Shown here: positions 38,020 to 48,288 of the stretch, in pieces
How the letters are laid out: each line of letters begins with the position of its first letter
Position numbering within the stretch: the stretch's first letter is position 1
Assembly: GCA_022822855.1 (NCBI GenBank)
Contig: JAJDYG010000019.1
Coordinates: forward strand, 36,475 to 100,474
Reading direction: 5' to 3'
Origin: Dehalococcoidia bacterium
GTDB taxonomy: Bacteria > Chloroflexota > Dehalococcoidia > Bin125
DNA length: 64,000 nt
Position numbers and translations under genes: made by a program
Notes under the pieces: model-generated
Databases searched by the model: none
Told to the model about the DNA's origin: nothing
What the model saw: the letters and a program-made list of their open reading frames with translations, nothing else

Positions 38020-39183
38020 ATGGAACGTGCGTATTTTGACCACGCGGCGACGACTCCTCTGGACCCTCGGGTGTTGGAGGCGATGGCGCCGGCATTGCAG
38101 CATGGATGGGGGAATCCCTCGGGGATTTACCGCGAGGCCCAGTACGCGGCAGGGCTGTTGGACCAGGCTCGGGATGATATTGCGGGGGTGCTGGAATGCT
38201 CTCCTTCAGAGGTCGTGCTGACCTCGGGCGGCACGGAGTCCGACAACCTGGCGATTCGCGGAGCGGCGCTGGCCCGTCAGCACGCGGGTCGGCACTTGAT
38301 CACCCAGGCCACCGAGCATCATGCGGTGCTGCACACGATGGAGCAGCTCGAGCATGAGGGCTTCGAGTTGACAGTGCTGGGCGTCGACGCGGACGGGTTT
38401 GTCGATCCGGACGAGGTTGCCTCGGCGGTTCGCGAGGACACGACGGTCGTCAGCATCATGCTGGCCAACAACGAGATTGGGGCTGTGCAACCGCTGGCCG
38501 AGATCTCGCGGGCGGTGAAGGAGCGCAATCGGCGCGCGATTGTGCATACCGACGCCGTGCAGGCGGCGGGCGCGGTCGATATCCGTCCCGACGTGCTGGG
38601 CGTGGACCTGGTCTCGCTGACGGCTCACAAGATCTACGGACCGAAGGGCGCAGGCGCGCTCTATGTGCGGCGCCGGACGCCGCTGCAGCCGTTGCAGCTC
38701 GGCGGCGGTCAGGAAGAAGAGCGCCGGGCGGGCACGGAATCGGTGGCCCAGGCGGTGGGTCTGGCGACGGCGCTGACCCTGGCGGAAGAGGAGCGTGCGG
38801 CGCGGACGGACCACGCGTCGGAGCTGCGCAATCGGCTCTGGCGAGAGCTGAACGAGCGCGTCCATCCAATCAGGCTGAACGGACCGTCCGACTGGTCGCG
38901 GCGGCTGGCGAACAACCTGAATGTGAGTTTCCCCGGCGTCGAGGGCGAGAGCATCCTCCTGCAGCTTGATCTGGAGGGATTCGCCGCCTCCTCCGGCAGC
39001 GCCTGCAGCACGGGCAGCACCGAGCCGAGTCACGTGCTCAGCGCGATTGGTCTGGATCCCGACACCGCCCACGGCACCCTGCGTCTCAGTCTGGGCCAGT
39101 CGAACACCGAGGAACAGATCGACAGTATTGCCCGGTCGATCGAGCAGATCACGGCACGGCTACGGGCGCTGTCGCCTGTATAG
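38020..39183 (+). CDS. Cysteine desulfurase (IscS/NifS class V aminotransferase)
   Basis: YFDHAATTP ... VLTSGGTESDNLAIRG ... SLTAHKIYGPKGAGALYV (PLP-Lys) ... SSGSACSTGSTEPSHVL (active-site Cys loop). Confidence 0.7.
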   Translation: MERAYFDHAATTPLDPRVLEAMAPALQHGWGNPSGIYREAQYAAGLLDQARDDIAGVLECSPSEVVLTSGGTESDNLAIRGAALARQHAGRHLITQATEHHAVLHTMEQLEHEGFELTVLGVDADGFVDPDEVASAVREDTTVVSIMLANNEIGAVQPLAEISRAVKERNRRAIVHTDAVQAAGAVDIRPDVLGVDLVSLTAHKIYGPKGAGALYVRRRTPLQPLQLGGGQEEERRAGTESVAQAVGLATALTLAEEERAARTDHASELRNRLWRELNERVHPIRLNGPSDWSRRLANNLNVSFPGVEGESILLQLDLEGFAASSGSACSTGSTEPSHVLSAIGLDPDTAHGTLRLSLGQSNTEEQIDSIARSIEQITARLRALSPV

Positions 39184-39208
39184 GGTGAGTCGAGTCAGGA
39201 GCAGCCCA

Positions 39209-39883
39209 ATGGTCACTGCGGAGCCCAGGCCGTCAGCATCACTCACGGGAACGACGCAGCCCAGGCCGCCTGTCCGTGGTGTCTTTCCGGTCCGATTGAC
39301 GCTGCCCTCCGACTGGGAGCTGACCGATGACGTACTCAGCGAAATGGGATCACTCAATGAACTGTGGCGATTCGAAGTCGACAAGTCCGGTTGTCTGCTG
39401 ATCATGTCGCCATCGTTCCCACTCAGCGGGATACGCGCCGGACGGATTCTCTCTCAGCTCGTTGTCTGGTCGGACGAGCACAATTCAGGTATCGTCGCCG
39501 ATTCCAGCTCGATGTTCCGATTGCCGAACGACGAGGTCAGGGTGCCTGACACAGCATGGATAAGCGATGAACGGTTGCAATCGGTATCTGAAGACCTGGA
39601 AGGAGCCTGGCACATCTGCCCGGATTTCGTCGTCGAAGTCCGTTCAGGATCTGACCAACTCGCAGATCTGCAGATCAAGATGGAGATGTGGGTGTCGCAG
39701 GGGGCGCGATTGGCGTGGCTCGTCGATCCGTACGAGGACGCGCTCTGGATCTACCGACCGGAGCAAGAGCCGGAGCGTCTGCAGCGGCCCGACAGAGTGA
39801 CAGCGACCGAGATCGCCGACGATCTGGTGATCGACTTCACCCGCATCTGGCCGGATCGGAAGGCTCGCGATGGTCACGGCTGA
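39209..39883 (+). CDS. Uma2 family (DUF820) PD-(D/E)xK endonuclease-like protein, copy 1
   Basis: LELTD..L.E..SLNE.W..E.D ... CPDFVVEVRS ... MEMWVSQGARLAWLVDP is the DUF820 pattern. Confidence 0.55.
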   Translation: MVTAEPRPSASLTGTTQPRPPVRGVFPVRLTLPSDWELTDDVLSEMGSLNELWRFEVDKSGCLLIMSPSFPLSGIRAGRILSQLVVWSDEHNSGIVADSSSMFRLPNDEVRVPDTAWISDERLQSVSEDLEGAWHICPDFVVEVRSGSDQLADLQIKMEMWVSQGARLAWLVDPYEDALWIYRPEQEPERLQRPDRVTATEIADDLVIDFTRIWPDRKARDGHG

Positions 39884-40550
39884 GCGATCTGAGGCAGCGG
39901 GCCTCGCGGCCACGGTCGCGTCAAGGGGAGCCTGGGAGACTGCGCCGCGGGCGTTTCCACTGCGCCTGCAATTGCCGCGCGACTGGGAGCTGACGGACGA
40001 GCGACTCCTGGAGTTGGGGTCGCTAAATGAAGAGTGGTACCTCGAGGCCGACTGCGAGGGAGGACTGTTCATGGCGCCGCCACCAGGACCGCTGAGCGGC
40101 AAGCGGGAGTTGCGGATCGGCTCGCAGATTCTCAACTGGAGTGACGCCGCCAAGAGAGGGGACGCATTTCCTTCGGCCACATTTCGGCTGGCAAATGGTT
40201 GGCGGCGCGCACCAGACGCGGCCTGGGTCAGCGATGAACGTCTCTCAGGGATCGCCGCCGACGATGAGGGGGTCTGGGCAGTTTGTCCCGACTTCATAGT
40301 GGAAGTGCGTTCAGCGAACGATCAACTGGGTCTCTTGCGAGAGAAGATGGAGATGTGGGTGTCGCAGGGGGCGCGATTGGCGTGGCTCGTCGATCCGTAC
40401 GAGGACGCGCTCTGGATCTACCGACCGGAGCAAGAGCCGGAGCGTCTGCAGCGGCCCGACAGCGTGACAGCGACCGAGATCGCCGACGATCTGGTGATCG
40501 ACTTCACCCGCATCTGGCCGGATCGGAAGGCTCGCGATGGTCACGGCTGA
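39870..40550 (+). CDS. Uma2 family (DUF820) endonuclease-like protein, copy 2
   Basis: Same family. Its 3' ~190 bp are identical to copy 1, and it overlaps copy 1 by the 14-nt ATGGTCACGGCTGA junction. Confidence 0.55.
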   Translation: MVTAERSEAAGLAATVASRGAWETAPRAFPLRLQLPRDWELTDERLLELGSLNEEWYLEADCEGGLFMAPPPGPLSGKRELRIGSQILNWSDAAKRGDAFPSATFRLANGWRRAPDAAWVSDERLSGIAADDEGVWAVCPDFIVEVRSANDQLGLLREKMEMWVSQGARLAWLVDPYEDALWIYRPEQEPERLQRPDSVTATEIADDLVIDFTRIWPDRKARDGHG

Positions 40551-41220
40551 GCGATCTGAGGCAGCGGTCCCCGCGGCGACGGTCGCTGCAAAGGAAGCCT
40601 GGGAAGTTACGCCGGAGGCGTTTCCGTTGCGCCTGCAGTTGCCATCCGACTGGGAGTTGACGGATGAGTGCTTCCTCGAACTGGGCCGCCTCAACGAGGG
40701 CTGGCGGATTGAAGCGGACGGCGAAGGAGGCCTGCTGATCATGGCGCCAACCGGTCCGATGAGCAGTGCCCGGGGAAGCAGCGCCCTGGCTCAAATCTGG
40801 GTCTGGAGCGACGCACACGAGTCGGGAATGGTCTTCGATTCGAGCGCCACCTTCCTGCTGGCCAACGGTGATCGCCGGATGCCCGATGCAGCCTGGATTA
40901 GCGACGAACGGCTGGCGGAGATTGCCGACGACGATGACATCATCTGGCGAATCTGCCCCGATTTCGTCGTCGAGGTGCGATCACAGTCCGACCGGCTGGC
41001 GCCTCAACAGGTGAAGATGGAGTTGTGGATCTCGCAGGGCGCCCGGCTTGCATGGCTTGTCGATCCGTTGGAGGAAACGGTCTGGATTTACCGACCGGGG
41101 CAAGAGCCGGAGCAGGTCGAGCGGCCCGAGAGCGTGACGGCGACGGAGATTGCGGATGATCTGGTGATCGACTTCACTCGGATCTGGCCGCAGCGGGATC
41201 AAGGGTCAGAGACCAGCTGA
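40537..41220 (+). CDS. Uma2 family (DUF820) endonuclease-like protein, copy 3
   Basis: Same family but more diverged. The junction with copy 2 is identical to the copy 1/copy 2 junction. Confidence 0.55.
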   Translation: MVTAERSEAAVPAATVAAKEAWEVTPEAFPLRLQLPSDWELTDECFLELGRLNEGWRIEADGEGGLLIMAPTGPMSSARGSSALAQIWVWSDAHESGMVFDSSATFLLANGDRRMPDAAWISDERLAEIADDDDIIWRICPDFVVEVRSQSDRLAPQQVKMELWISQGARLAWLVDPLEETVWIYRPGQEPEQVERPESVTATEIADDLVIDFTRIWPQRDQGSETS

Positions 41221-42319
41221 CATCAGTACCGAGGAATCGGGCGATCTCGGCGAACTCCGATTCCAGTTGAGACCGCGCGTCGTCCGAGAACGGTTCGAAG
41301 CAAGTGACGCTCACGGCCAGTCCCCGCGCTCGACGCTTGCGTTCCCAGGTGCCGACGAGCCGGCCGTCGATGATCACGCATGAACGGATCATCCCGCCGC
41401 CGGCGTTGATTCGTTTGAGCAGCGGCTCTTCAACGCCGAGTTGTCGTTTGGCGTAGCCGAGCAGATACGGATCGAACGGGCCCAGCACTCGCACGACCTC
41501 CGCCGGGTCCGAGAGGACCTCATCGATGCGGGCCGCCGAGTCCGGGGTCATCCACATCTCCGCGCCGTCAACGCTGACTCCGTTGAGCTCGTCGGCGAGC
41601 GCGGTGAATCCGCGCCGAGCGTCCGCCGCGGGCAAGCCCGTCCACCAGCGGAAGTCGGCGGCGGTCGCGGGTCCGTAGGCCGAGAAGTAGCGGCGCGCGA
41701 GCTCTGCCCACGGATCGGCCGGCGGCTCGTCGTCGGGCAGCCAATCGTCGATCAGGATGTGAGTCTCATCGTCGTCTTGATCGGGCCCGAAACAGATCAC
41801 TCCAAGCATCGACGCGGTTCGCAAGAGATGCCGCGGCGCTTGACTTTCTGCGGGGAGTCCGGCTGCGGCGAGCACGTCGGTGACTTCGGTCCGCTTCAGG
41901 GTTCCTCGGCGAGTGAGATCGGCTCGGAAGAAGTCGAGGACTCTGGCGTGGTCCTCGGGGCTGATGCCCAGATCGGCGCGGCGCTTGAGCGCCTTGGCAT
42001 CCATCGCCTGGCCGAGCAGGCCGAGCATCCAGCGGAAGTCTTCGGCGGGAACCAGATGCAGGGTGCCTCGCATGAGCCAGCTACGCACGACGGTTCGCTC
42101 GACGTTGCGGGCCCGCTCCACGTCCTCGGCGGTCAGTCCGACCGAACGAGTTCCCACTCCCAGCAACCAACCGAGGCGGTCCTGCGCCTGGATCGCGCCA
42201 GCCTGTCGCACGGCTCCGGCGACATCGGCCGCGCGCGCCGCGCCGAGCCCCTGCGCGTGCGTTCGCAGGCGTCGGGCCTCGGACCAGTTGAGCGAGACGG
42301 GATTGCGACCTGCCGGCAT
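41174..42319 (-). CDS. Winged-helix DNA-binding domain protein of the AlkZ/YcaQ (HTH_42) DNA glycosylase-like family
   Basis: Length and motifs WLMRGTLHLVPAEDFRWM ... FDPYLLGY ... fit the HTH_42/DUF1006 pattern. Confidence 0.5.
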   Translation of the reverse strand: MPAGRNPVSLNWSEARRLRTHAQGLGAARAADVAGAVRQAGAIQAQDRLGWLLGVGTRSVGLTAEDVERARNVERTVVRSWLMRGTLHLVPAEDFRWMLGLLGQAMDAKALKRRADLGISPEDHARVLDFFRADLTRRGTLKRTEVTDVLAAAGLPAESQAPRHLLRTASMLGVICFGPDQDDDETHILIDDWLPDDEPPADPWAELARRYFSAYGPATAADFRWWTGLPAADARRGFTALADELNGVSVDGAEMWMTPDSAARIDEVLSDPAEVVRVLGPFDPYLLGYAKRQLGVEEPLLKRINAGGGMIRSCVIIDGRLVGTWERKRRARGLAVSVTCFEPFSDDARSQLESEFAEIARFLGTDVSWSLTLDPAAARSE

Positions 42320-42399: not shown

Positions 42400-43182
42400 G
42401 TGACCACTCCTCGACGCGACGAATGGCAGCCCGACCAGTACGCCCGCTTCAAGGCGGAGCGGGAGCAGCCGTTTTACGACCTGTTGGACCTGGTCGAGGC
42501 GATTCCAGAGGGCCGGGTCGTCGATCTGGGCTGCGGCACGGGCAAGCTCACTCGAGTGCTGCACGAGCGGACGCAGGCGGCGGAGACGGTTGGGCTGGAT
42601 CGCTCCGACGCGATGCTGGAGCAGACGGCGCAGTACGCCGGCGGAGGCGTCCGGTTTGAGCGGGGCGACATCGGGGAGTTCTCGGACTCCGGGCTGGACG
42701 TCGTCTTCGCCAACGCGTCGATCCAGTGGGTGCCCGACCACGCGGCGCTGTTTCCCCGGCTGGCAGCGACGCTCGGGCCGGGCGGCCAGCTCGCGGTGCA
42801 GATGCCGGCCAACGAGGATCATCCCTCGCACGCGGTCGCTCGGGAGGTGGCAACCCACTCGCCGCACGCCGAAGCGCTGGGCGGCTTCGTCTACCGCCAC
42901 TCGATTGAGCCGGAGGAGTGGTACGCCGAGCAGTTCGCGCGGATTGGCTTCGCCGAGCAGCACGTGCGAGTCCAGGTCTACCTGCACCGGCTGCCGGGGC
43001 GGGAGGATGTCGTCGAGTGGGTCAAGGGGTCGCTGCTGACCGGCTACCGCGATCGGATGGCGGCGGAGGACTACGAGCTGTTTCTGGCCGACTATCGGGA
43101 GCGGTTGCTGTCGGTGCTGCCGGACGAGCGGCCGTTCCTGTATCCGTTCAAGCGGCTACTGCTGTGGGGGCGGATGGGGTAA
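42400..43182 (+). CDS. tam: Trans-aconitate 2-methyltransferase-like class I SAM methyltransferase
   Basis: QPDQYARFKAEREQPFYDLLDLV ... VVDLGCGTGKLT ... VFANASIQWVPDH closely matches the Tam family. GTG start. Confidence 0.55.
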   Translation: MTTPRRDEWQPDQYARFKAEREQPFYDLLDLVEAIPEGRVVDLGCGTGKLTRVLHERTQAAETVGLDRSDAMLEQTAQYAGGGVRFERGDIGEFSDSGLDVVFANASIQWVPDHAALFPRLAATLGPGGQLAVQMPANEDHPSHAVAREVATHSPHAEALGGFVYRHSIEPEEWYAEQFARIGFAEQHVRVQVYLHRLPGREDVVEWVKGSLLTGYRDRMAAEDYELFLADYRERLLSVLPDERPFLYPFKRLLLWGRMG

Positions 43183-43473
43183 GCGGGTGTCAATTTCTGC
43201 TAGTTTTTCCTAGTTTCGACCAAGTATTTTCGCCTCGTTATGTTCGGGATTCTTGCGGATTTCCTGTGCTTTGCTGGGTTTCGTGATCGGGGTTCGGGTT
43301 TCAGGCGGGAAATTTTTTCCGCCGGCCGCCGACGCAGCGAAGCCGGGGGGTCCGGAGCTAGTCGCTCTCCTGTTCTTGGTTCATGATAGCGGGTTGTTGG
43401 AGGGTTTGTTGGACGCCCTGTTGACGCCGAGGTATATCCTGTCATTGTGGCGAACCGCTGAGGGAGCGTGAAC

Positions 43474-43644
43474 ATGACGACTCAGGAAGAATCGAGACCG
43501 GCAACGCTCTCGGAGTTGTTCCTGGTTCGAGATCAACTCAACAGCCGGATCGATGACCTCCAGAAAGTGATGTTCTGGGGATTCGGGCTGTTGGCGGCGC
43601 TGCTCATCGCATTGCTTGGTGTGGTCCTGAGCGGAGCAGGCTGA
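43474..43644 (+). CDS. Small (56 aa) single-pass membrane protein with N-terminal helical segment; paralog of 47734-47982
   Basis: ORF below the 60-aa track cut-off: ...LNSRIDDLQKVMFWGFGLLAALLIALLGVVLSGAG. Shares N.RIDDL...W-G...LLxALLG with the 82-aa protein. Confidence 0.3.
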   Translation: MTTQEESRPATLSELFLVRDQLNSRIDDLQKVMFWGFGLLAALLIALLGVVLSGAG

Positions 43645-43650
43645 CCAACC

Positions 43651-45279
43651 TCACCCCTCCAACTTCGGCTGTACGCCTTCCCGACGGCGGCGGCGCGGGG
43701 CCTTGCGGAAGGTCTGGGGGGCGGCGAAGCGGGGGTAGTCGGGCTGGGCGCCGTCGAGGAGCTGCTCGATGGTCAGGATCTGGACCTTCGGATAGCGGTT
43801 GCCGGGCAGACTCTCCGGCTCGTAGAAGCCCGCGCCGATCGCTTCCTGGCGCATGGGCTCGGTCGGCTCTTCGAGCGTGATGAAGATGCCGACGGCGGCT
43901 TCCTCGCGATCCATGTCGCCTTTCAGCGTGGCGATCATCCCGCGGTTCACGTGGCCGCTCTTGACCTGGACGATGATCCGCCTGGCCTTGCCCGAGTTGT
44001 CGTCGAAGAAGTTGATGTAGCCGTCGATGCCGGAGTCGGCGCCCTTCTTGCCCGTCGCGGGGCGGGCGTCGACGAGGCCGAGGGCCCAGTACTCGAACTG
44101 GTAGCGGCCGTCGTGCTCCGACTCCGTCGCCAGCGCCCGAGCGCTGGCGACGTCCTGGGGCAGACCGATCACTGAGTACTCGGACAACTCTGAGCCGAAC
44201 GTGTCGTGGAGGCGGTGTTTCATCAGCGACACGGCAAGATGCGTGATGTCTATGCCGATCCAGCGCCTCTTCAGGCGCTCGGCGACAGCGACCGCGGTAC
44301 CGCATCCGCAGAACGGATCGAGAATGACATCGCCTTCGTTGCTGCAGGCACTAATGATGCGCTCAAGTAGCGCTTCAGGCTTCTGGGTCGGATATCCGAG
44401 ACGCTCTTGGTGCCAGGAGCGTAAAGCTTCAATGTCGGTCCAATTGTCCTGAACGGCCAGACCTCGCGCCTCGTCCAGATACCGCTTGATACGAGGTATG
44501 CCGTTCCGCGTGTAGAAGATTCTTCCCTCGGCGTCCAGGCGAGCCATCGTTGACTCGGGAACGCGCCACAATCTGGTTACGCCCTTCCATTCATATGTAT
44601 AGCCACCTCCTTGCAGTCCACCAGCCCCCAGGTCTCCGGACATGAAGCGCCGGCCATCATCATCCGTGTATCGATAGTACTGTTCAACGTATTGAGGATC
44701 GTAGTCTTGGTACTCTTGATTCCAGAGGTAATCGCTTGAGTTCGAAAAGAACATCAGAACATCGTGGACCGAACCGTATCTCCTTGCATCGCTGTGAGCG
44801 CTTGTCCTCTTCCAGATGATCTCGTTGCGGTAGTTGTCATGTCCGAACACCGCGTCCAACAGCAGCTTGATGTAGTGGCTGGCCGTCGGGTCGCAGTGGA
44901 GGTAGATGCTCCCCGTGGGCTTGAGCACTCGGCGGAGTTCGGCCAGCCGCTGGGCCATCATCGTCAGGTAGGCCATCATGTCGTTCTGGCCCAGGAAGGC
45001 TCGCATCGCCTGGAGCAGGCTTGCGAGCCGCTCCGGACCCTGCGTCACCACCTCGCGGTAGGCGGCCTCCGAGCCAAGGTCCCAGTGCCAGGTGTCGTCG
45101 AAGGCCGTGATCTGCGCGGCCGAGTCCTCGCCCGTCTTCTCCTCGAAGAGGACGTTGTAGGTGGCGTTGGAATTGAAGGGCGGGTCGAGGTAGATCAGGT
45201 CGACGGACTCGTCGGGGATGTGTTCGCGGAGGACGCTGAGGTTGTCGCCGAAGTAGAGCTGGTTGGTCCAGGTGGTCAT
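43651..45279 (-). CDS. N4/N6 DNA methyltransferase (beta class) fused to C-terminal Mrr-like restriction endonuclease domain
   Basis: DPPF motif (DLIYLDPPFNSNATY), SAM motif TQKPEALLERIISACSNEGDVILDPFCGCGTAV, and a C-terminal GADSGIDGYI ... RIIVQVKSG (D..QxK nuclease-like core). Confidence 0.65.
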   Translation of the reverse strand: MTTWTNQLYFGDNLSVLREHIPDESVDLIYLDPPFNSNATYNVLFEEKTGEDSAAQITAFDDTWHWDLGSEAAYREVVTQGPERLASLLQAMRAFLGQNDMMAYLTMMAQRLAELRRVLKPTGSIYLHCDPTASHYIKLLLDAVFGHDNYRNEIIWKRTSAHSDARRYGSVHDVLMFFSNSSDYLWNQEYQDYDPQYVEQYYRYTDDDGRRFMSGDLGAGGLQGGGYTYEWKGVTRLWRVPESTMARLDAEGRIFYTRNGIPRIKRYLDEARGLAVQDNWTDIEALRSWHQERLGYPTQKPEALLERIISACSNEGDVILDPFCGCGTAVAVAERLKRRWIGIDITHLAVSLMKHRLHDTFGSELSEYSVIGLPQDVASARALATESEHDGRYQFEYWALGLVDARPATGKKGADSGIDGYINFFDDNSGKARRIIVQVKSGHVNRGMIATLKGDMDREEAAVGIFITLEEPTEPMRQEAIGAGFYEPESLPGNRYPKVQILTIEQLLDGAQPDYPRFAAPQTFRKAPRRRRREGVQPKLEG

Positions 45280-45432: not shown

Positions 45433-46386
45433 TCACAGCGACTCACGTAAGGCGTACCAGTTATATCTCCCCGCGTCCAGGGGCTGAGCAGTGACCTGCA
45501 CCATATCGTTCAGCAAGAGTCCAACAAAGATCGACCAGGGCTCACTAGATTCGAAATCTACTATGTGTCCTTGCGGCTCCGGTGTGAGTTCTATTCTAAC
45601 CAAGGAATGTTCCGGCATCTTGCTGTCTTTGGTTTCGTTAGCACTAACCAGTATGTTCTTCTTGCCTGCGCTATGATTGAGCGCGACCGCCAGATCTATA
45701 CGATCGCGGTGCCCCAGCCCATGCTGACGTACTAAGTGTTCATAGCTCAGCCGCAGGCTGAGAAAATCCGTAGCGTCGAAGGCTATCACAAAGAAAATCG
45801 ATTCCCAGTAGCGGCCGGCGCCAAGCGCTTCGCCAAAGGGCTTTGCGGTGGCGATGGGATGATAGGGATGCGGATCACGGTACGCAACGCGCGACAGTGA
45901 CTTGTAGCTCTCGCACTTGTCAAAGCAGTCTCGAAGCTGGCTCGCATGCAGCCTTGTCTTCACTTCTCCACATGCGTAGGTAGCCTCAACCGGGAATACT
46001 TCAGCTCCATCAGGCCCAGCCGCTGCCCGAATCCTTGGGCAGTTGAAGCGATCATAGAGAATGATGTCCATTTGCTTGGAAGTGCTTCCATAGGAATCTA
46101 CTACGAAGCCATGTGAGATACCGACCTTCTCAGGAGGCACGCTGCTGAGAGCTTCACGGATTCGGGATTCGATACTCTGACCAATCTCTCCCGGACTCGG
46201 AAGCTTGCGATCACCCTCAATGTCAGCGATCAAGCGCGTTTGCATGTCGTAAAGGGACTCTGCGAGTTGGCCACGCGTTGGTGCGGGTGCATTCCCGCCA
46301 TCGTTGGGAGCCCGCGTCGGTCGGGGATTTACGATTGGTAGGCTGCGTTCTTTCTGTCGCCTGCGATTCTCTTTCGACATTGCCAT
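45433..46386 (-). CDS. Uncharacterised PD-(D/E)xK nuclease-like protein (candidate restriction/defence endonuclease)
   Basis: GFVVDSYGSTSKQMDIILYD ... AEVFPVEATYACGEVKT gives a D-x(n)-E-x-K arrangement. It sits directly upstream of and co-oriented with the MTase gene, in an AT-richer segment. Confidence 0.35.
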   Translation of the reverse strand: MAMSKENRRRQKERSLPIVNPRPTRAPNDGGNAPAPTRGQLAESLYDMQTRLIADIEGDRKLPSPGEIGQSIESRIREALSSVPPEKVGISHGFVVDSYGSTSKQMDIILYDRFNCPRIRAAAGPDGAEVFPVEATYACGEVKTRLHASQLRDCFDKCESYKSLSRVAYRDPHPYHPIATAKPFGEALGAGRYWESIFFVIAFDATDFLSLRLSYEHLVRQHGLGHRDRIDLAVALNHSAGKKNILVSANETKDSKMPEHSLVRIELTPEPQGHIVDFESSEPWSIFVGLLLNDMVQVTAQPLDAGRYNWYALRESL

Positions 46387-46882
46387 CCTACTCACGATTC
46401 TCAGGACACCTTGACCACGCCCCATTGTCGTCAAGCAGGTTCCGCCAATCAAGGAATTGGCTGCAATCCACGCAGTGGCGCACCGGCCTAGGCGATGACA
46501 GGTGCGATATCCCCAATGGTGGTTTTGCGCCGCGCGATGTTGAAATCGTAGCCGCGCTGCAGGTTGAGCCTAAACGCCGGCGTCGTGTCCAGCGGCTGAA
46601 GTGCGGTCCCGATAGTGCGCTGTAAACTGAGTGGACAGCGATCAGGAAGAGATGCGCGATGCCGGACGAAGAGAGGGGCTTGACCGTCGGGCAGGCGGTG
46701 CGCGGCGACGGGCCGCCGATGGACCCGGAAGAGGCCCGCAAGCTCCGCGAGCGCGTCTCCGGGAGCTGGGAGAAGTACTTCCGCGAGTACCCGGCACTCG
46801 AGGAAGCCTACGGGCAGCACCGACGCCCCAGCTTCGAAAGCGGCTAGCCAATCACGGTATTCATCGACGGAGTGTTCAGGCC

Positions 46883-47125
46883 GTGGAGCGGATTTACTCC
46901 AAGGACACCGACACGCTGATGTTCGTCTTTTCCGACGAGCGCATCGTTGACCATGTCGATCTCGACTACCAGACGCTGCTCGAGCTGGACTGCGACGGCA
47001 ACCCGGTCGCATTGACCATCGAGCACGCCCGCGAACGCGAGGTCTTGCGGCCTCCTGATGCCGGCGGGCTGCCTAATGCTACGACCGCACCGACCTCTGT
47101 ACGTGCTCGCGGAGCGCCTGGTTGA
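46883..47125 (+). CDS. DUF2283-like small protein
   Basis: RIYSKDTDTLMFVFSDERIVDHVDLDYQTLLELDCDGNPVALTIEHARER resembles the DUF2283 pattern (Y D.EAD.L.I.L ... D.D.dG.lvGIEI). Putative GTG start; the long upstream in-frame extension looks non-coding. Confidence 0.3.
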   Translation: MERIYSKDTDTLMFVFSDERIVDHVDLDYQTLLELDCDGNPVALTIEHAREREVLRPPDAGGLPNATTAPTSVRARGAPG

Positions 47126-47363
47126 TCTTGGTCTGATAGCCCCGACCCTCCTGCGCCTGCGCCTTGAACCAGGCGATCACGTCGGCATCGATTCTGAGCG
47201 TGATCTGTTGCTTGACCGGCCGGTAGAACTTGCCTCGCACGGCGCCCGTCCAGTCAGTCGTTTCCGGAATGTCACTGAAGTCGATCTGGTCATCCGGGAG
47301 AGCTTCCAAGGCCCTAATCTGAGCCTGCGACTCGGGCGACAGATCACTCATTTCCTTCTTCAT
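47079..47363 (-). CDS. brnA: BrnA antitoxin (CopG/RHH-like)
   Basis: SDIPETTDW ... ITLRIDADVIAWFKAQAQEGRGYQTKINQALREHV is the BrnA family pattern. Overlaps the brnT 3' end. Confidence 0.55.
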   Translation of the reverse strand: MKKEMSDLSPESQAQIRALEALPDDQIDFSDIPETTDWTGAVRGKFYRPVKQQITLRIDADVIAWFKAQAQEGRGYQTKINQALREHVQRSVRS

Positions 47364-47634
47364 ACTCCCGCCTCTCTGACCTCGACGCCTTTCGTGCCGA
47401 GATGACTCGCGCGCTCAGTTCTGGCCCCATGGGCGTTTCCTCAAACCAGGTGTGAATCACCACAATGACCTGGGACGCAACCATGCCGATTGTCCGCCAG
47501 CGTTGCTCCTGCCGATAATGATCCTCGACCGTGATCGACATCGGATCGTCGAAGACTGCGACCGCAGTTGGAAAATCGATGTCGTGCTTGCGAAGGTTGG
47601 CAACGTTCTTCGCGGGATCCCAGGTCCATCTCAA
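47344..47634 (-). CDS. brnT: BrnT toxin (DUF497 ribonuclease)
   Basis: WTWDPAKNVANLRKHDIDFPTAVAVFDDP ... RVISARKASRSERREYEEG matches the BrnT/DUF497 consensus. Start appears to be TTG. Confidence 0.6.
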   Translation of the reverse strand: MRWTWDPAKNVANLRKHDIDFPTAVAVFDDPMSITVEDHYRQEQRWRTIGMVASQVIVVIHTWFEETPMGPELSARVISARKASRSERREYEEGNE

Positions 47635-47982: not shown

Positions 47983-48108
47983 GCCATTGCCTCCGACCCT
48001 CGCGCCCGCTGTAGTGCATTCTTATCAGTTGGATAACACCAACACGGGGGTCATGCGCTCCCCTTTGCCTACCGAGGATCCACTCGGCCCTGCGTTGAGG
48101 CAGCGGCG

Positions 48109-48250
48109 CCGAGCGGGTCCCCGAACAAGTCGGGGACTGGGAGGCGAGCCGGTCTCCGAACGAGTCGGGGAACGGGAGCCGAGCGGGTCCCCGAACGGGT
48201 CAGGGAACAGGTGCCGAGCGGGTCCCCGAACGGGTCGGGGAGTGGGAGCC
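48109..48250. repeat. Four tandem copies of a ~35-bp unit, each a small hairpin (gtccccgaacRRgtcgggga)
   Basis: gagcgggtccccgaacgggtcggggaacgggagcc with minor variants, repeated head-to-tail four times. Confidence 0.6.
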
Positions 48251-48288
48251 GGGCGGACGCCCGCGTGAAGCGGGGAGCGGCCCCCTCC

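Follow-up and report, generated by a model that had tools for sequence, protein, structure and literature searches.

We have analyzed a stretch of 64,000 nucleotides from a Dehalococcoidia bacterium (contig JAJDYG010000019.1, positions 36,475 to 100,474 of the forward strand; from here on, the window) and found in it a gene that codes for a beta-class DNA methyltransferase (MTase) and a C-terminal Mrr-type nuclease module in one single polypeptide (Table 1). Our interpretation, to which we would give a probability of roughly one half, is that this fusion is a self-contained restriction-modification (R-M) enzyme made of only one protein, built on a beta-class MTase and of an uncharacterised type. 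The N-terminal two thirds would be a MTase similar to the Mod of Type III systems, in which an internal domain (approximately residues 151-290) would read the DNA sequence. The C-terminal third would be a sequence-nonspecific cleavage module of the Mrr PD-(D/E)xK type, as in MspJI/AspBHI, Type ISP enzymes and FokI, followed by a predicted disordered basic tail that ends in a conserved short peptide. The MTase part would bind its site and, on host DNA, methylate it, while on unmethylated incoming DNA the tethered nuclease would cut near the site, probably after two molecules meet, as happens with FokI or MmeI. This reading fits best because the gene is solitary, mobile, present in several copies in some genomes and frequently decayed, because a recognition region that appears to be swappable is combined with a constant cleavage domain retaining the essential residues, and because the locations of the gene are of the type found for defence systems. 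What the analysis shows is how the protein is built, its predicted fold, the retention of the catalytic residues, the variable region, the solitary and mobile occurrence of the gene and its independence from the neighbouring DUF6602 gene. Methylation, cleavage and the role in defence are predictions made from the sequence.

A methyltransferase and an Mrr-type module in one polypeptide

Three Pfam families matched the fusion protein, all of them above their curated thresholds: N6_N4_Mtase (PF01555) on residues 26-351 (E 2.9e-44, 152.1 bits for a cut-off of 26.7), Mrr_cat (PF04471) on residues 410-481 (E 6.5e-8, 33.1 bits for a cut-off of 21) and NA-iREase1 (PF22722) on residues 410-509 (E 1e-9, 38.7 bits for a cut-off of 27). 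The motifs DPPF, TQKP (residues 298-301), DPFCGCGT, GADSGIDG and VQVK follow each other along the protein. The guanine plus cytosine (GC) content of the gene is 0.621, and that of the whole window 0.654. An earlier note on this DNA, made from the sequence alone, had proposed precisely a beta-class N4/N6 MTase with a C-terminal Mrr_cat-like D...QxK module in one polypeptide. The two profiles that it suggested to search for were both found above threshold, and the motifs that it quoted are at the positions it gave. Besides, the Mrr-like fold is detected and the MTase motifs are complete, so that neither of the two objections the note had foreseen to its own proposal applies.

In the MTase half, motif IV comes first, then a variable region and then motif I, which is the order of the beta class. 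A sequence search of the PDB indicated resemblance to the solved beta-class enzymes CcrM, M.RsrI, M.MboIIA and Type III Mod, with the region of motif I aligned, and the MTase_III profiles of PADLOC matched with E about 1e-43. Adenine-specific NCBIfam models also matched, with scores under their equivalog cut-offs. The target base is probably N6-adenine, since motif IV is DPPF and the best matches are specific for adenine.

Fold and catalytic residues of the nuclease module

A sequence search of the PDB with the nuclease module alone gave no meaningful match. The full-length AlphaFold model, obtained from 47 close homologs, was poor (mean predicted local distance difference test score, pLDDT, of 63, with residues 374-426 below 50) and was set aside for the fold search and for the domain arrangement. 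The module (residues 365-542) was remodelled with a profile made from trimmed divergent modules and more diverse homologs, and this model was confident (mean pLDDT 84.4, predicted template modelling score 0.78). In it a helix carrying E396 is followed by a short strand, a strand after D419, a strand ending at K440, a helix, a strand, a helix carrying E479 and a last strand; as modelled, the module has a restriction-endonuclease core. Foldseek comparisons of this model with the PDB and with viral models (BFVD) agreed on restriction endonuclease or Mrr, and the matches were mostly sequence-nonspecific cleavage domains that work joined to a separate recognition module. The Mrr_cat group is also where a survey of PD-(D/E)xK proteins placed AF1548 (PMC3424549).

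The motifs of the Mrr family were defined in LlaGI as a Glu (motif I), D-x3-D (motif II, the first Asp being a marker specific for the family) and Q-x-K (motif III). There, the changes D74A, D78A and K94A abolished cleavage, while E38A and Q92A reduced it and left partial activity (PMC2790908). All three motifs are found in the module of the fusion. In order to evaluate their conservation, we counted the residues at these positions in 194 modules, taken from representatives of clusters at 50% identity plus profile hits, and roughly 40-75% identical to the query. D415, D419 and K440, the counterparts of LlaGI D74, D78 and K94, were kept in 193, 192 and 193 of them, respectively. Position 396 was Gln in 122 and Glu in 71, and position 438 was Gln in 116 and Ser in 78; these two varying positions correspond to E38 and Q92, those that tolerate alanine in LlaGI. 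The phage copies (36-46% identity) have the same pattern of residues at the catalytic positions. Conservation thus favours an active nuclease, and the module looks catalytic because the essential trio is nearly invariant and the dispensable pair varies. This is what would be expected under selection for catalysis, and it is unlike the usual inactivated derivatives of this fold.

One of the Pfam families matched by the module, NA-iREase1, stands for NACHT-associated inactive restriction endonuclease. Taking the definition from the Pfam name alone, the module departs from it, given that it follows a MTase and not a NACHT domain and that it keeps D-x3-D and the Lys. A literature search found no paper on NA-iREase1.

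A variable region inside the methyltransferase

The different parts of the protein are conserved to different degrees. In a within-family alignment of 197 sequences, the mean pairwise identity was 0.79 for the N-terminal catalytic core, 0.85 for the region of motif I and 0.75 for the nuclease module (0.79-0.86 in its core), and only 0.52 for residues 151-290, the least conserved part of the fusion. The same was apparent when comparing paralogs of one genome, which are 37-54% identical in residues 151-290 and 72-97% in the remainder. Four related genomes (numbered here L002, L004, L008 and L011) share with the window an arrangement of nuoB, the fusion gene, a small S-adenosylmethionine (SAM)-dependent methyltransferase and AlkZ. 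The alleles of L008 and L011, located at the same chromosomal position as the gene in the window, are 85-94% identical to it outside this segment and 41-42% within, where an alignment to both at the DNA level gave no match. In the window, the segment has a GC content of 0.538, against 0.60-0.68 in the rest of the gene, and this suggests a recombinational exchange of the specificity cassette with a donor of lower GC content.

We presume that residues 151-290 behave as a swappable target-recognition domain internal to the MTase, and the pattern of variability along the alignment is that of specificity diversification in restriction systems. The earlier note had considered the C-terminal module as a possible target-recognition domain. 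This is unlikely, because the module is constant, being among the most conserved parts of the protein, and the variability sits inside the MTase; we have rejected this option.

Distribution and decay of the family

The best 120 homologs of the fusion all have the same three-domain architecture, with identities of at least 69%. An exhaustive search of representative sequences with the module alone retrieved 2842 clusters (at 50% identity) with E <= 0.001 and 1308 with E <= 1e-10. The architectures were taken from this exhaustive search plus Pfam, while homolog searches based on a word index gave mostly short fragments of the same fusion. Mrr_cat matched 76 of 77 divergent representatives of the module, and a MTase was present in 45 of the 77. 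The others had an N-terminus without Pfam match or, rarely, ParB_N, M78 peptidase or HHH, and some of the representatives lacking the MTase are probably fragments. Among species-representative genomes we found at least 585 loci with the fusion, and the comparisons of gene context were carried out with the best 80 of them, which belong mostly to Dehalococcoidia, plus Caldilineaceae, Latescibacterota and Acidobacteria. Several genomes carry two or three copies. The fusion is therefore not rare; it belongs to a very large family, with thousands of members, that spans phyla, temperate phages and plasmids.

We clustered the open reading frames (ORFs) located within 5 kb of the fusion gene over the 80 loci. 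No neighbour was present in more than 11, and the recurrent ones were metabolic genes. Orthologs with 91-92% protein identity (L001 and L003) were found in unrelated contexts, and at the DNA level nothing but the fusion gene itself was similar. The gene is, then, usually solitary and mobile. It is also carried by rhizobial and other plasmids and is present in 28 phage records, corresponding to 22 Streptomyces phages, five Mycobacterium phages and the Marinitoga phage MPV1. In the Streptomyces phage Ejemplo it adjoins a serine integrase, and in MPV1 a CI-like repressor.

Decay is frequent in this family. Degraded copies, produced by frameshift, internal deletion or N-terminal truncation, were found at L089 (3550-4522), L090 (447-2207) and L091 (3911-4567), and we observed that gene callers present these three as stand-alone 'restriction endonuclease' ORFs. 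Three ORFs consisting only of the module (P0147, P0124 and P0217, of 175-230 amino acids) were considered as natural split genes and discarded, since each of them derives from the fusion by a frameshift, an internal deletion or the loss of its N-terminus. Being decayed copies, they say nothing about a form with two subunits. A protein of Haloferax, HVO_A0006, was also discarded as a relative; it comes from a Type IIG enzyme of the gamma class, of which it is a fragment, and is unrelated. A literature search for a fusion of N6_N4_Mtase and Mrr_cat, with REBASE outside its reach, found no paper describing it, and the single paper that names both domains concerns Shedu.

Restriction-modification enzyme or solitary methyltransferase

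The locations of the gene are typical of defence systems: in the window, a hotspot of low GC content that also holds BrnTA, DUF6602 and the remnant of a HigA gene; in phages, lysogeny regions; and rhizobial plasmids. A number of points weigh, nevertheless, against a restriction function. The searchable literature contains no experimentally tested member of the family, and public records name its members 'DNA methyltransferase' only. The best Pfam match of the module is the family named as inactive, and the presence of Gln instead of the motif I Glu in most members (122 of 194) and of Ser instead of the motif III Gln in many (78 of 194) could weaken metal binding. Methyltransferases encoded by phages are usually protective orphans. 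The synteny of the gene in the four genomes of this Dehalococcoidia lineage would fit a resident housekeeping methyltransferase as well. The recognised fused R-M enzymes (Type IIG) all have a gamma-like class A MTase, as is reported for those in REBASE (bioRxiv 10.1101/2023.12.13.571470), so that there is no precedent with the beta class, and the poor full-length model (pLDDT 63) is uninformative about how the two halves would communicate.

The naming in the records, the inactive Pfam family, the replaced Glu and Gln, the carriage by temperate phages, where orphan methyltransferases are common, and the synteny are also what could be expected from a solitary (orphan) MTase. In that case the Mrr-like module would no longer cut and would serve for DNA binding, dimerisation or regulation, and the protein would only methylate, for example protecting phage, plasmid or host DNA or acting in epigenetic regulation. 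Non-catalytic uses of the restriction-like fold do exist, and Rpb5 appeared among the fold matches of the module. However, non-catalytic derivatives of this fold normally lose the essential trio, which is kept here in at least 192 of the 194 modules down to about 40% identity and in the phage copies, and the only two positions that vary are those where alanine is tolerated in LlaGI. Besides, regulatory orphans tend to have one specificity, and it would be unusual for them to exchange the recognition region or to have several paralogs in a genome. We consider a solitary MTase the main rival, possible although rather doubtful, and prefer the single-polypeptide R-M enzyme.

The DUF6602 gene upstream and its variable slot

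Upstream of the fusion gene, on the same strand and 153 bp apart, there is a gene coding for a second nuclease. Its product matched the Pfam profile DUF6602 (E 1e-20, 74.1 bits for a cut-off of 27) and PD_DExK/NucC of PADLOC, and aligned with the NucC of Serratia (PDB 7zgv, E 1e-11) over the segments MDIILYD and GEVK, the alignment being restricted to the N-terminal core. The earlier note had regarded the pairing with this second nuclease as unusual. In a two-gene Type II R-M system, it would be the endonuclease and the fusion its cognate methyltransferase. The closeness of both genes and the intact PD-ExK core (D130; E163-V-K165), aligned to NucC, speak for such a system, and other DUF6602 genes were found near methyltransferases at L007 and L082.

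The comparison of loci speaks against it. A relative of DUF6602 was found within 10 kb of the fusion in only one of the 80 loci (L007), about 5 kb away and not adjacent. In L004, the closest of the syntenic genomes, where the fusion protein is about 93% identical to that of the window and occupies the same chromosomal site, the slot upstream contains HigB/HigA (Pfam HigB-like_toxin and HTH_3) and no DUF6602. The slot is occupied by a membrane protein weakly similar to DUF6161 in L008 and by a DUF2806 gene on the opposite strand in L011. Seen from the other side of the pair, the DUF6602 homolog at L007 (4171-7115) is directly upstream of a small N6_N4 MTase with a SPPY motif, which already has its own BglII-family endonuclease, a layout that reproduces that of the window with the MTase-nuclease pair unfused and that speaks in favour of the R-M reading of the fusion. 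DUF6602 relatives in metagenomes have no conserved MTase neighbour, and the one at L081 is without any. The GC content of the DUF6602 gene is 0.543, the lowest of the region, against 0.621 for the fusion gene, and DUF6602 has been described as the domain of a single-gene anti-phage system, 'Damona' (bioRxiv 10.1101/2024.07.02.601686). Whether one starts from the fusion or from DUF6602, the evidence has led us to reject the latter as cognate endonuclease, and a two-gene system appears most improbable. Thus, of what the earlier note described, the fusion stands, and the pairing with the upstream nuclease is incidental and does not characterise the system.

The slot upstream of the fusion is a turnover hotspot, occupied by HigBA, DUF2806, a DUF6161-like gene or DUF6602 depending on the genome. 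Next to the DUF6602 gene the window keeps a remnant of a HigA-type antitoxin, in which positions 46525-46592 match L004 9807-9874 at the DNA level, within the HigBA pair of that genome (9338-9920). By this sequence match, the remnant is a leftover of the HigB/HigA pair that occupies the slot in L004. Judged from its GC content (0.543, compared with the window), the DUF6602 gene is a recent insertion. Neither a cyclase gene nor CRISPR genes turned up when the ORFs and Pfam hits between 38 and 50 kb were inspected, which sets the DUF6602 gene apart from NucC proper. Most likely, the gene encodes an independent single-gene nuclease of defence type inserted into a variable hotspot. As a side observation, DUF6602 genes seem to settle beside R-M modules without being their nuclease.

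A candidate clamp-binding peptide at the C-terminus

The protein ends in a basic tail that is disordered in the model, and we have examined the end of this tail in 422 unique sequences of the family. A Gln followed three positions later by a hydrophobic residue, Q..[LMFIV], appeared within the last 10 amino acids in 75.8% of them, while shuffling the tails gave 9.6% (at most 14.5%). A stricter clamp-like pattern was found in 40.8% of the tails and in 2.7% in the shuffles, and the fuller form, similar to the known penta- or hexapeptides and with a second hydrophobic residue, in 172 of the 422. The consensus of the tails anchored at the Gln is G-x-Q-x-x-(L/F/M)-x-x-COOH, with the C-terminus usually at 5-6 residues from the Gln. 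The version in the window, QPKLEG, has the Gln in position 1 and the Leu in position 4 and misses the second hydrophobic residue, which is also missing from 148 of the 422 tails. The consensus of bacterial clamp-binding peptides is QL(S/D)LF at the C-terminus, with considerable variation tolerated (PMC9690074). Such peptides begin with a Gln, have hydrophobic residues in positions 4 and 5 (or 6) and usually come behind a flexible linker, and by this resemblance the peptide of the family is a candidate sliding-clamp-binding motif. In EndoMS/NucS, a nuclease with restriction fold, a C-terminal clamp motif is needed in vivo and stimulates cleavage (PMC6159521), and the binding of Dnmt1 to PCNA provides a precedent for a methyltransferase bound to the clamp (PMC9690074).

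If the peptide does bind the clamp, the family could be an unrecognised class of R-M enzyme in which a Mod-like MTase with swappable recognition domain and an Mrr cleavage module, all in one protein, would be docked on the beta clamp through G-x-Q-x-x-L. This extension is speculative and, in our opinion, unlikely. Type III and Type ISP enzymes have an ATP-driven motor; here the beta clamp would stand in for it and carry the enzyme along newly copied DNA, in such a way that hemimethylated host DNA would be promptly methylated again and unmethylated phage or plasmid DNA would be cut while replicating.

The conserved peptide at the extreme C-terminus, coming after a disordered basic linker, and the Dnmt1 precedent could suggest instead a function in genome maintenance coupled to replication. 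In such a case the tail would tether the protein to the beta clamp, the MTase would mark new DNA, and the nuclease would act in repair or strand discrimination like NucS/EndoMS or MutH. However, variable recognition domains, paralogs, frequent decay and carriage by phages and plasmids do not fit housekeeping repair, the tail in the window is devoid of the second hydrophobic anchor, and a candidate clamp binding is equally compatible with an R-M enzyme. We regard a role in genome maintenance as improbable.

Features of the neighbourhood

The coordinates of the fusion gene, its motifs and the neighbouring features are given in Table 1.

Table 1. Coordinates of the fusion gene, of its domains and motifs, and of neighbouring features in the window (aa, amino acids of the fusion protein unless otherwise stated).
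Feature	Coordinates	Strand	Remarks
Methyltransferase-nuclease fusion gene	43651-45279	-	542 aa; ATG start; intact ORF; stop codon within the span
MTase catalytic motif IV, DPPF (aa 32-35)	45175-45186	-	invariant in the family alignment and in phage homologs
Variable central region, presumed target-recognition domain (aa 151-290)	44410-44829	-	low identity, allele replacement, deviant GC
MTase motif I, SAM binding, DPFCGCGT (aa 321-328)	44296-44319	-	invariant in the family alignment and in phage homologs
Mrr-type PD-(D/E)xK nuclease module (aa 391-510)	43750-44109	-
Nuclease motif I, E396 (FEYW)	44086-44097	-
Nuclease motif II, D415-x3-D419 (GADSGIDG, aa 413-420; D415-SGI-D419)	44020-44043	-
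Nuclease motif III, Q438-x-K440 (VQVK, aa 437-440; Q438-V-K440)	43960-43971	-
Disordered basic tail (aa 511-542)	43654-43749	-	pLDDT about 52
Tail end QPKLEG (aa 537-542)	43654-43671	-	version in the window of the C-terminal peptide of the family
DUF6602/NucC-like PD-ExK nuclease	45433-46452	-	339 aa from a TTG start; D130 and E163-V-K165 present; neighbour outside the system
HigA-type antitoxin remnant	46488-46640	-	translation DTTPAFRLNLQRGYDFNIARRK matches the C-terminus of the L004 HigA
BrnA antitoxin	47079-47363	-	Pfam BrnA_antitoxin, E 1.3e-16
BrnT toxin	47344-47634	-	Pfam BrnT_toxin, E 2.4e-24

The BrnT and BrnA genes belong to a variable block of low GC content that separates nuoB from the fusion gene; they are absent in L004 and partly present in L008. 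In the same block there is a DUF2283 gene, listed as an ORF at 46631-47125 (+), of which probably just the 3' third is the real gene. Between the variable block and nuoB, at 48105-48280, we found about five tandem units of 35 nucleotides, each with a hairpin (TCCCCGAAC...GTCGGGGA). The unit also matches a related genome (L004 16791-16855) and is probably a dispersed element of REP-like type. We searched for signatures of integration of the island, but neither a tRNA gene nor an Rfam family nor any convincing repeat at its flanks marks it, and the scan for promoters and terminators gave a background level.

On the downstream side of the fusion gene there is an intergenic stretch of 468 bp (43183-43650) with a low GC content (0.56), which contains only weak terminator-like sites and matched neither a tRNA nor an Rfam family. 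The segment of the window from 43 to 44 kb has a strong adenine-thymine skew (-0.257). Beyond are an AlkZ-like DNA glycosylase (41174-42319, -) and the small SAM-dependent methyltransferase (42400-43182, +), a divergent pair that is kept beside the fusion in L002, L004, L008 and L011. Further away, at 38966-41220 (+), there are three tandem Uma2 paralogs ('putative restriction endonuclease'; Pfam E 2.7e-29 for the third) with nearly identical C-termini and overlapping stop and start codons.

Significance

The copy found in the window is just one of the very many members that the family already has, and nothing is so far surprising apart from the architecture and the candidate clamp motif. If the nuclease is active, a very abundant type of single-protein R-M system, present across phyla, is now filed as 'DNA methyltransferase'. 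One would then have to count restriction systems anew in Chloroflexota and many other groups, and the reading of 'orphan' methyltransferases in genomes and phages would also change. The protein would also provide a compact scaffold for engineering, with a swappable recognition domain and a nonspecific cutter. If the clamp-binding tail is real, it would be the first link of a bacterial R-M enzyme or methyltransferase to the replisome. If the nuclease is inactive, the protein would be nothing more than an ordinary orphan methyltransferase carrying a fossil domain. The second nuclease is irrelevant in both cases, the DUF6602 neighbour being a separate insertion.

Comparison with known systems

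The upstream neighbour, and not the fusion, is what resembles Damona and the NucC of CBASS and type III CRISPR systems, with which it shares the DUF6602 domain and the NucC-like PD-ExK core, respectively. In contrast with NucC, it aligns only in the N-terminal core and has no CD-NTase/cyclase or CRISPR genes nearby. Regarding the tail of the fusion, NucS/EndoMS is the nuclease in which a clamp-binding peptide at the extreme C-terminus is needed in vivo (PMC6159521), and the likeness of the tail to it is a resemblance only. Unlike the fusion, NucS lacks a methyltransferase, binds mismatches through an N-terminal domain and plays a conserved role in housekeeping.

The nuclease module shares its motifs (E, D-x3-D and Q-x-K, including the second Asp of motif II, without which LlaGI does not cleave) with the Mrr of E. 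coli, with MspJI/AspBHI and with the Type ISP enzymes LlaGI and LlaBIII. By these motifs and by its modelled fold it is a bona fide member of the Mrr family, while the whole protein, by its architecture, is not a Type IV enzyme. In Mrr and MspJI/AspBHI a winged-helix or SRA domain recognises modified DNA, and the Mrr-type domain cuts it. In Type ISP enzymes the Mrr-type domain works with a helicase-like motor and a gamma-class MTase, whereas the fusion has a beta-class MTase and no motor.

The MTase half, on the other hand, is similar to the Mod of Type III systems (EcoP15I Mod, PDB 4zcf, and Mod, PDB 6k0w), that is a beta-class N6-adenine MTase with a variable recognition domain between motifs IV and I. 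The difference is that no gene for a Res-like protein or helicase is adjacent here or conserved in the 80 loci; the nuclease is fused directly to the MTase and there is no ATP-dependent motor.

As a whole, the enzyme would work most like those of Type IIG/IIL (the MmeI, BpuSI and Eco57I families), in which MTase, recognition domain and PD-(D/E)xK nuclease also form one protein, encoded by a solitary gene, with recognition domains swapped between relatives and several paralogs possible. The MTase and nuclease domains of the fusion are in one ORF and no nuclease partner is conserved in the 80 loci. In Type IIG/IIL enzymes the nuclease is N-terminal, the MTase is of the gamma-like class A and the recognition domain is C-terminal (PMC3185434; bioRxiv 10.1101/2023.12.13.571470), while the fusion has a beta-class MTase and carries its nuclease at the C-terminus. 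It would share the way of working of Type IIG/IIL, yet it departs from a defining feature of the group as now catalogued.

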